This document shows, piece after piece, positions 47,101 to 50,100 of a stretch of 64,000 nucleotides of DNA (positions within the stretch are counted from its first letter, which is position 1; the number at the start of each line of letters is the position of its first letter). Position numbers: made by a program. Origin of the DNA: Escherichia coli O157:H7 (GTDB lineage: Bacteria; Pseudomonadota; Gammaproteobacteria; Enterobacterales; Enterobacteriaceae); NCBI RefSeq assembly GCF_013167455.1, contig NZ_CP038328.1, one strand, 5' to 3'.

Positions 47101-50100
47101 GATCTCCGACTGGAATGACTGTGAATTTGCCGAAATTTTGATAATCAGTTCACGTAACGTCGCCATTCACCTTTCTCCGGGCGTAAAAAAACCGCCTCAG
47201 CGGTTCTCATCATTCATGACTGTGCTGCAAGGCTCAGCGCGTCTTCCAGCGCCGCAAACGGATCCACCTCCGGCTTATCCTCATCCTCGCCCCAGCAGAG
47301 CATGGCGTCCTTCAGTGCAACATTCATCCCCTGTGCCCCGAAAACCGCTTTCACGATCTGTGCATTACGGATATCCCCGCGCTCATCACCCAGCGGGGAT
47401 ATCCTGTCGAACTCCATCCACATCATCGCCTCGCTCGCACTCAGGCTGTGGCGCAGTTCGGATAAGGTGCGCCCCAGACGGAGCGCAAGTCGCATCAGAA
47501 AGCGAATTTCCGGGCGGGCTACTTTTTTCTGGCCGACTCTGCATCAGCGATCAGTTCCAGTGCCTGACGCAGCAACCGGGCATGTACCGGACCATAGACG
47601 GCCAGCACCTGCTCACGGTCGTCCGGAGTGAACACCCGCTGCAGGTCCGTATCACACAGGACATCGCAGAACAGCGTCACATCCGCTTCCAGGTTACGGC
47701 GGGTTTTCGCCACCACCGACAGGGTATCGTCATCCTCTCCATCACCATTGAGCACTTCCTGCCACAGATACCAGGCCTCTGCCGAAGGCTCCCGCAGCAC
47801 CACGCTGACATTACCCCATTCCGGCACCTTCACCGTTTTATGACGAAACCCTGACAGTCTGGCCAGCGCCAGCGTTTTCAGATCCTTTTTCATGATGACC
47901 CATCCCCTTATCCGGCGGCAGCGCTCACTGTCACGGTGCATTCAACAGACGTCACACTCTGTGCTTTCTCTGCCGAATCGGTCACCACACAGGTATATTT
48001 CCCCGCATCAGCGGACTGCGCACCTGGCTTACTGAAGGTGTCTGTCGTCTGCCCGTCAACCGGCTGACCATCCTTCTTCCAGGCGTATTTATACGGCGGC
48101 GTTCCCCCGTTGGCACTGACTGACATTGTCAGCAGCGCACCGGTATTCACGGTAAGTGTCTTATCCAGATTTTTCACAAACGCCAGCGGTACCACAAAGG
48201 ACACCGGTTTGCCTTTCAGACGCAGTGAGAACGTTGCAGCCACCACGCCGTTGGTACCGGATGACCAGGTGTGCTGGCGCACTTCCGCCAGGAATTTAAA
48301 GCCCTTACCGGACGGAAACAGCACCTTAAACGCATACAACGCGTCATTGTCATAGGCATCACGCAGGGCGTTCTGGGCCTGATTCAGATAAAAATTGCCC
48401 GACATGGAAATCTCAGACGACGCCCCCAGACCATTGATGTTCTCCTGCTCTGTGGAGCAGAGCGTGGTCACATCAATATCCTGTTTCTGCCCGGCGGTGA
48501 ACTGCACTTCCTTGATGGTGCAGTCCAGGCGCAGATATTCCGCCTTATCCATAGTTTCAGCAGTCGCCGGGGCAGATGAAATCATCACCTGCGTCAGCTG
48601 TGAGCGTTCATACAAAGCAGACATTCTGCCTCCTGATAATAAAAAACCCGCACGCGGCGGGGTATGGGTTTTGTAGAAAAAAGAAAAAGTCACACCGTGA
48701 CCTGAAACTCCAGGGTTGCACGGTAACAGCGGTTTTCCGGAATATAGTCCTGCATTTCACTGACGGATCCCGGGGCCAGCAGCATTATGGCTTCACGGGC
48801 GTCCTGACGTATCTGACGCGCCTGCGTCACAGTCCCGGCATAAACGTCTATCTGCACCGACACTGAGGACTCCGCCTGCCCGCCCATCACGTCCGCTGAC
48901 ACCGATGAAATCAGGCTGAAAACCACCCACGGAAGCGCCACCGACGGCCTGCCATCCAGCAGGGGGACCACATACGGGTACACCTGCCCGCCGGCAAGAT
49001 GCGCCAGATGAGGATACAAATCCGCCTCCGTCATCGTCTCAGTACCTCATCAATGGCCCGGTTCATCCGCGCAATCGCCACCTGTGCCGCCTGTTCACTG
49101 CGCACATCAAATGCCGGGCGCACAAACGGGTGCGGTGGCATATTCACGGTCCCCATTTCCACAAACCGCCAGTAGAAAGCATTGCGCGGGTTATCCGCCT
49201 TCATGGTGTTATCGCTGTTACCGGTGTCCGGATTAACACCCCGGATATGCACACCGGATTCCATCCCGCCATCGCGGGAGCACCGGGAAAGGACCACCAC
49301 ATTGCGGCGAAGTTTTCCCCTGCGTACCGGTGCCCGTGACACCACTTCTTCTTTCAGCACATTCGCACCCGCACGGGTTGCCTCACGCAGCACCCGGTTA
49401 TTTTCTGCACCACTCAGAAGCTGCAAATCGCGGCTGATGTCCTCCAGCCCCGAAAAATCCAGCAGGGTTTCGATCATTTTTCCCCTCCCAGCCGACAGAG
49501 AATTTCCAGACGTCCGCCGGTCGCATCCGGCACGGTCACGCCAGGGACCACTCAGCACATGAAGTCGTGACGCTGCCGTGATTTCCCGACCGGACTGACC
49601 GCGCACCCAGATGCGGATTTCCGCCTGCGCCATTTCCGCACCGGACTGCATCCGCTCCCGGCTGCTCCTGCCCCGGATATCCGCATGAATTTTCCCGCAT
49701 GACACCCATTCTTCCGTCATTTCTCCGGCAGCGTTACGGGTTAACACCGGGTTCAGAACACTTATCATCTGTGTCAGACGACCTGCAGATATTGCCATTC
49801 CCCCTCCTCATAACACCGTCGGACAACGCAAATCGTAAATCAGCACGGAAACAGAAAACGGCAGCTCCCCCTGAATCAGTTCTTCCCGCTCCGCAAGATC
49901 CGGATTCCGGTACAGCATCCCGGTCAGTCGCATGGCAGCCCCCTTCATCCGGGTTAATGCCTCGCCCGGGATCAGTTCACCGTCCTCACGAATCACCTTA
50001 TCCCGGCTGCCCTGAATGTAGGCCAGCAGCACGGCGGTAGCCTGACGAACCTTGTCCATCAGCATCTCATCATCCGCGTCATGGTCGACACGCAGATGTG

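Follow-up and report, generated by a model that had tools for sequence, protein, structure and literature searches.

In necks of type 1, the genes follow the order Ad1-Hc1-Ne1-Tc1 (Lopes et al., 2014; PMC4362835). In the phages SPP1, lambda and HK97, the head-closure protein (Hc1) and the neck or tail-completion protein (Ne1) are separate polypeptides that differ in stoichiometry and location, with Hc1 forming a ring on the head side. Loss of the Ne1-type proteins gpZ or gp16.1 lowers infectivity 100- to 500-fold, and the Ne1 homolog of 80alpha is a monomer placed within the narrow lumen of the tail (PMC11661146). We herein describe a 64,000-nucleotide stretch of the Escherichia coli O157:H7 genome (assembly GCF_013167455.1, contig NZ_CP038328.1; the whole stretch is called the window below), in which a lambdoid prophage carries both functions in one open reading frame (ORF) of 255 amino acids (aa). 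The two halves of this ORF correspond in gene order to SPP1 gp16 and gp16.1, lambda gpFII and gpZ, and HK97 gp10, but they are joined and the Hc1 half is truncated. We consider it very likely that the ORF is a frameshift pseudogene of the head-closure gene, which reads into an intact Ne1 gene within a defective prophage.

The ORF occupies positions 49031..49798 on the minus strand, starts with an ATG and corresponds to a protein of about 28.2 kDa (ORF list and molecular-weight calculation). The original prediction had reported this single ORF and had assigned it to two families, head closure and HK97 gp10-like, whose genes are normally separate and overlapping; both points were borne out by the profile searches and by the orthologs described below. 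In Pfam, PF05521 (Phage_HCP) was matched at residues 3-73 (profile positions 1-71 of 106; 50.4 bits, cutoff 25) and PF04883 (HK97-gp10_like) at residues 121-216 (profile positions 3-78 of 78; 39.2 bits, cutoff 21.4). In PHROGs, phrog_25 ("head closure Hc1") was matched at residues 1-86 (E = 4e-21) and phrog_5 ("tail completion or Neck1") at residues 106-255 (E = 2e-34). As both halves represent genuine genes, the ORF is not a chance open frame. According to Pfam and PHROGs, the gene directly upstream is the head-tail adaptor Ad1 (Phage_connect_1, 108 aa; 49808..50134, minus strand), and the gene downstream is a tail terminator (SPP1 gp17-like, PF11367, 114 aa; 48690..49034, minus strand), the ATG of which overlaps the Ne1 stop codon as ATGA. 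The Hc1 part therefore stands where a head-closure gene is found in type 1 necks, with Ad1 directly upstream and Ne1 directly downstream, and the gene order of the window is that of Ad1-Hc1-Ne1-Tc1.

In close homologs, the two families are encoded by two genes, Hc1 with 351 nt (116 aa) and Ne1 with 447 nt (148 aa), and the Hc1 TGA and the Ne1 ATG overlap as ATGA. Separate 351-nt and 447-nt genes are annotated in strain 17B6-2 (in two prophages), phage 2851, ECP19-598, PPompW_EH1992 and the Sp6 prophage of strain Sakai; in the latter, ECs_1546 (phage head-tail adaptor, 116 aa) and ECs_1547 (phage minor tail protein, 148 aa) are distinct, whereas the window has one 255-aa ORF. Other O157:H7 strains carry the pair WP_001007905.1 and WP_000573374.1 together with 26 bp that the window lacks. 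When the four-gene block was searched by megablast, 1,249 E. coli and 92 phage records were matched at 95-98% identity, and the full-length matches listed were about 26 nt longer than the window query. A continuous ORF as the normal state was not seen among the homologs aligned across the junction, which makes the ORF of the window the anomaly.

The difference is accounted for by one clean gap. An alignment to phage 2851 and the O157:H7 strain 17B6-2 reveals the loss of 26 bp from the window, which read CCGGATCCTGAACGTTGTCGGGCTGC in its closest homologs; no further difference is seen in the vicinity. Compared with the intact homolog, 266 nt are identical counting from the Hc1 ATG and 505 nt counting from the Ne1 stop codon, and these two stretches overlap by 3 nt. 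The overlap is a CCG microhomology at 49533..49535, where the deletion junction lies (alignment and exact comparison), so that the position of the breakpoint is ambiguous between its two sides. The gap is also the sole indel in 28,027 columns aligned with the orthologous prophage of ECP19-598, from which the window differs otherwise by 31 mismatches. The original prediction had placed the junction at about 49470..49490, but only the Ne1 ATG (49477-49475) is found there, and the lesion lies about 55 nt further upstream in the gene.

The 26 bp between two CCG triplets were deleted, most likely by replication slippage or by microhomology-mediated illegitimate recombination, leaving the gene without Hc1 codons 90-98. 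Among the deletion mechanisms examined, only the 3-bp CCG microhomology fits the breakpoints. A longer direct repeat does not, since the sole candidate, a pair of 6-bp CCGGAT motifs 31 bp apart, is mismatched to the breakpoints, and a hairpin-mediated event was rejected because the intact DNA folds no better than shuffled sequence (z = -0.28).

Because 26 bp amount to eight codons plus two nucleotides, the deletion shifts the frame by -2, which is equivalent to +1. Three-frame translation of the intact sequence revealed no stop in the Ne1 frame over the 28 codons that precede the Ne1 ATG; consequently, a ribosome starting at the Hc1 ATG bypasses the Hc1 TGA and continues through Ne1. The 255-aa ORF thus consists of Hc1 residues 1-89, a linker of 18 out-of-frame residues and the whole of Ne1. 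The retained 5' part of Hc1 (codons 1-89; 49532..49798, minus strand) encodes a protein segment identical to residues 1-89 of WP_001007905.1. The accidental linker of 18 codons (AGCDRRTSGNSLSAGRGK; 49478..49531, minus strand) is the old 3' end of Hc1 read in the Ne1 frame, as became evident when the window and the intact homolog were translated in three frames; a shifted ribosome would read these 18 unrelated residues and then all of Ne1. The orphaned 3' end itself, now in the +1 frame if counted from the start of Hc1, is still present as the last 19 codons (VPDATGGRLEILCRLGGEK) followed by TGA (49474..49533, minus strand; sequence and three-frame translation). The lost stop codon that had been suggested as an explanation is accordingly not lost: the original Hc1 TGA remains at 49476-49474, out of frame and bypassed. 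Taken together, the head-closure gene differs from its intact orthologs by an indel not divisible by three and sits in a prophage with further inactivating lesions, as is characteristic of a frameshift pseudogene.

What the gene has lost can be described in structural terms. Hc1 residues 1-89 are kept and residues 90-116 are gone; the intact protein covers positions 1-104 of the 106-position Phage_HCP profile in Pfam, compared with positions 1-71 in the ORF of the window. An AlphaFold2 model of intact Hc1, built from a four-sequence alignment (mean predicted local distance difference test score, pLDDT, 82.6), contains six beta-strands, the last two at residues 90-99 and 105-112. Over its full length this model resembles PDB entry 2KZ4 (template modelling score, TM, 0.85), with which intact Hc1 aligns over residues 4-116, and SPP1 gp16 (TM 0.72) in 7Z4W, the structure of the SPP1 gp6/gp15/gp16 connector; it also matches 2KCA and the lambda neck 8K37. 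The model thus indicates that the lost residues 90-116 are the last two of the six strands of an SPP1-gp16-like barrel, along with the most conserved motif of the protein: among homologs of 39-45% identity, the best-conserved part of Hc1 is the block LN-G-P-PD-LEILC, which falls in the missing segment. In the ORF of the window the domain is incomplete, with both strands, 90-99 and 105-112, replaced by unrelated residues. From this we infer that Hc1 function would be destroyed, and with it the closure of the portal channel and the support of head-tail joining. A single-sequence AlphaFold2 prediction of the 255-aa fusion gave a mean pLDDT of 31; this model is uninformative and was not used.

The Ne1 gene, on the other side of the lesion, is complete (HK97 gp10-like, 447 nt, 148 aa; 49031..49477, minus strand) and 100% identical to the gene for WP_000573374.1 in strain 17B6-2. 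Its 148-aa product is likewise identical to WP_000573374.1 and gives a full-length family match above the gathering score. The Ne1 ATG (49477-49475) is unaffected by the deletion, and a Shine-Dalgarno-like sequence (GGGAGGGG; 49482..49489, minus strand), 4 nt upstream of it, is unchanged and identical in homologs. Ribosomes coming from upstream no longer stop at the ATGA overlap, so that the usual coupling of termination and reinitiation for Ne1 is lost. If the operon is expressed, it would yield a 28.2-kDa chimera of misfolded Hc1 and Ne1, with some free 16.6-kDa Ne1 arising from internal initiation. By analogy with the 80alpha homolog, an N-terminal extension of 107 residues on an Ne1-type protein is unlikely to be tolerated and would be hard to fit into the tail lumen.

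Several lines of evidence bear on whether the deletion exists in the bacterium at all. The original prediction had considered a sequencing error, which would mean that the bacterium does possess the 26 bp and that the continuous ORF belongs to this assembly only. Such an artefact would explain why none of the complete E. coli genomes and phage records searched yielded the junction; O157:H7 genomes contain four to five near-identical copies of the neck module, which makes assembly harder, and several of the other fused variants in public data come from visibly noisy assemblies, such as GCA_008711395.1 with its many fragmented phage genes. The exact 255-aa protein was found in one other place, a 4,816-bp Logan contig assembled from run SRR575717, which aligns with the window over 4,816 bp with two mismatches and no gaps and has the same junction. 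A k-mer assembly therefore reproduces the junction over 4.8 kb without a gap; moreover, a clean loss of 26 bp with microhomology is atypical of homopolymer or base-calling errors, and as the sole indel in 28 kb relative to the nearest ortholog it lies in an assembly that is otherwise clean. A clean, microhomology-flanked deletion that is reproduced by an independent assembler is most likely real, and we regard it as probably a strain-specific mutation and an artefact as very unlikely.

Some considerations weigh against the frameshift-pseudogene reading and should be kept in mind. SRR575717 could derive from the same isolate, in which case an assembler artefact is ruled out and inheritance is not shown; the support consists of assemblies rather than the raw reads behind the window's own assembly, which leaves a small residual chance of an artefact. 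The loss of function and the production of the chimera, including the mixture of chimera and free Ne1, are predictions from the sequence, and the 89-residue Hc1 fragment may keep some residual activity.

A second question is whether the ORF could be a genuine fusion, either because Hc1(1-89), linker and Ne1 work together in neck assembly or because the product has been selected as a dominant-negative agent against co-resident phages. The searches for similar proteins address this possibility. For the junction, a 131-nt query across the deletion was compared with a collection of 5,426 complete E. coli genomes and with a phage collection; the matches (1,248 E. coli and 92 phage records) were two-piece alignments spanning 157 nt, and no contiguous match ranked top. 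An exact 31-mer of the junction was absent from IMG/VR and JGI metagenome contigs, while an intact 42-mer, used as a control, was present in 98 IMG/VR contigs. With the concatenated intact pair as query, a HMMER search of 1.84 billion cluster representatives returned 1,764 hits, and no protein that covers both halves was among the best 150. In a protein database of 5.8 billion clusters, the usual state of Ne1 is a standalone protein of 148-149 aa, found in clusters of 1,197, 783, 710 and 508 members. Two-domain proteins occur there as near-singletons of 264, 264, 253, 225 and 195 aa (P0002 and P0003, P0004, P0005 and P0009, respectively, all from E. coli prophages), each with a different junction.

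In these sporadic public ORFs, an indel in the 3' portion of Hc1 has joined the same gene pair by way of the frame that is open ahead of the Ne1 ATG, but the ORFs derive from a +1 nt insertion or from deletions of other sizes, and the 26-bp deletion is found in none of them. The two variants that were examined sit in contigs with other fragmented phage genes. A tblastn search of phages with a 264-aa fused variant gave two-piece matches only, in 20 of the 20 records listed; PPompW_EH1992 and phi330, whose match lengths were off by 1 nt, were considered as possible carriers of a fusion, which was found in neither. A PHROGs family of "unknown function", phrog_23409 (264 positions), matches the fused form end to end, which implies that earlier depositions included fused ORFs. 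Intact Hc1 matches positions 1-98 of this family and intact Ne1 positions 117-264. The sequences behind this family appear to be fused ORFs that arose by frameshift, and annotations based on it may be misleading. Since the fused forms are near-singletons with different junctions and lengths, they point to independent accidents rather than inheritance. On this comparison of sequences, fused Hc1-Ne1 ORFs are best described as recurrent independent accidents, possible because the genes overlap at ATGA and the frame upstream is open, and not as a conserved architecture.

Measured against these data, a functional fusion retains a few points in its favor: the ORF is open from ATG to stop with Ne1 unchanged, both proteins act at the same head-tail interface (PMC4362835; PMC11661146), and phrog_23409 matches the fused forms end to end. 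Against it, the residues of the linker are read out of frame; Hc1 has lost a third of its domain, with two barrel strands and its best-conserved motif among the losses; the other fused variants differ in junction and length, each being a singleton or nearly so; both domains occur together in none of the best 150 cluster representatives; and the extension of 107 residues would be hard to fit into a tail lumen in which the 80alpha Ne1 homolog is monomeric (PMC11661146). We therefore judge a functional or adaptive fusion to be highly improbable, and the true fusion proposed by the original prediction is not upheld. Rather than a new protein architecture, the Hc1-Ne1 ORF is the product of a commonplace mutation of a known kind.

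A related idea is that the 28-kDa chimera is expressed with the late genes and enters the tails or necks of co-resident prophages as a dominant-negative poison. The Ne1 part is identical to the Ne1 of co-resident lambdoid prophages, among them Stx-converting phages whose neck module is 97-98% identical. If true, the pool of O157 prophages would release fewer infectious particles because of the chimera, and a decaying prophage would interfere with its neighbors; we hold this scenario to be extremely unlikely. Programmed recoding, in which a ribosomal frameshift near the deletion would restore functional Hc1 from the orphaned 3' end, is almost certainly not at work, for although that end and its stop codon are intact in the +1 frame and a programmed frameshift is generally known elsewhere in such operons, at the tail assembly chaperone G/T pair (47214-47941 in the window), about nine conserved residues (ILNVVGLP and its flanks) would be missing even after a frameshift, no slippery heptamer was seen at 49531-49545, the intact sequence shows no unusual folding (z = -0.28, calculated as DNA only), and the intact homologs need no recoding.

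With the frameshift pseudogene as the preferred reading, proper annotation of the locus would show a head-closure pseudogene with a frameshift and, after it, an intact gene of the HK97-gp10-like family, rather than a novel protein of two domains. ATGA-overlapping genes with an open upstream frame yield spurious "fusion" ORFs after suitable indels, and such ORFs have already entered the protein and phage family databases, as phrog_23409 illustrates. Since the junction did not turn up in any of 5,426 complete E. coli genomes, it may serve as a marker of the strain or lineage.

The prophage itself can be placed among the known elements of O157:H7. Its flanks (potA, potB, pepT and roxA) and its cargo (espK, espN and nleL) identify it as the ortholog of the lambdoid prophage Sp6 of strain Sakai, with which it shares the potB-side site, the cargo and the gene order at near-identical nucleotide sequence. 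Sp6 has been reported to be defective in portal, head and minor tail functions and to lack host specificity (Asadulghani et al., 2009; PMC2669165). In the orthologs, the host-specificity gene gpJ is absent, gpI is truncated, and effector genes follow straight after gpK. The 26-bp deletion is thus one more lesion in an Sp6-type O157:H7 prophage already known to be defective, and as such unremarkable; since gpJ is missing and gpI truncated in any case, the lesion presumably carries no cost to the host. With four to five copies of the neck module in O157:H7 genomes, intact Hc1 is available in trans, and the near-identical co-resident copies could complement the defect. We also considered whether the window represents Sakai, with the lesion being the published "head defect" of Sp6. 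This was rejected, because ECs_1546 and ECs_1547 of Sakai are intact and represent a different allele (RDHVLNVVGVP); the shorter gene in Sakai is that of the portal, ECs_1544.

Other parts of the prophage deserve brief mention. Its tail end (about 29779-43590) is degraded and laden with cargo: it contains the type III effector genes espK (29779-31140), espN (33785-37186) and nleL (37777-40125), a copy of IS2 and fragments of nleB and gogB. An Ant antirepressor gene and two Arc-family genes lie between the tail genes L and K (about 41220-42800). The tape measure gene (43924-47166, minus strand) has 3,243 nt, compared with 3,081 nt in strain 17B6-2. Within it, a 720-bp stretch (44854-45573) contains 24 of the 31 mismatches to the ECP19-598 prophage as well as both mismatches to the SRR575717 contig. 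This clustering suggests that recombination has exchanged the tract with that of a paralogous prophage. The tail assembly chaperone pair (Phage_TAC_1 and Phage_tail_T; 47214-47941, minus strand) is annotated as two genes. In lambdoid phages, the tail G/GT pair is the usual site of a conserved -1 programmed frameshift.

On the head side, the portal protein (50137-52716, minus strand, 859 aa) matches the Pfam portal domain at residues 54-382 only. Within its C-terminal half lies a 162-bp tandem repeat (50597-51129; 3.3 copies, 95% matches), which corresponds to repeats of 54 aa. Other O157 strains have the protein at the same full length (WP_000267295.1); in Sakai Sp6 the portal gene is shorter, with 2,502 nt. 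In the same operon, a conserved 645-aa protein (52928-54865, minus strand) combines Peptidase_S78 (residues 48-152) with Phage_capsid (residues 386-635); it is full-length in all orthologs (WP_000173030.1; ECs_1543 in Sakai) and is labeled major capsid protein or prohead protease depending on the genome. This protease-capsid fusion likewise places two head-module functions in one ORF, but unlike the Hc1-Ne1 ORF it is conserved and both of its domains are complete.

Two further elements and no tRNA gene were found in the window, the latter by a tRNA scan. The second element (about 13600-24558) occupies the interval between phoQ and roxA and corresponds to the Sakai element termed "Sp7; untypable". 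It carries genes for an integrase (23308-24558), a RepA-type helicase (19166-20566), a major capsid protein (16160-17215) and a small terminase (14638-15180), together with PerC, SSB and a head decoration protein, and has no tail genes. This gene set resembles that of capsid-forming phage-inducible chromosomal islands, and Sp7 has been reported to be spontaneously induced and packaged (Asadulghani et al., 2009; PMC2669165). The third element is a prophage remnant at 1-5329 beside icd, comprising the replication genes O (partial) and P, ren, emrE, an excisionase gene and an integrase gene (4187-5329); the gene names were taken from the annotation of the colinear region in strain 17B6-2.

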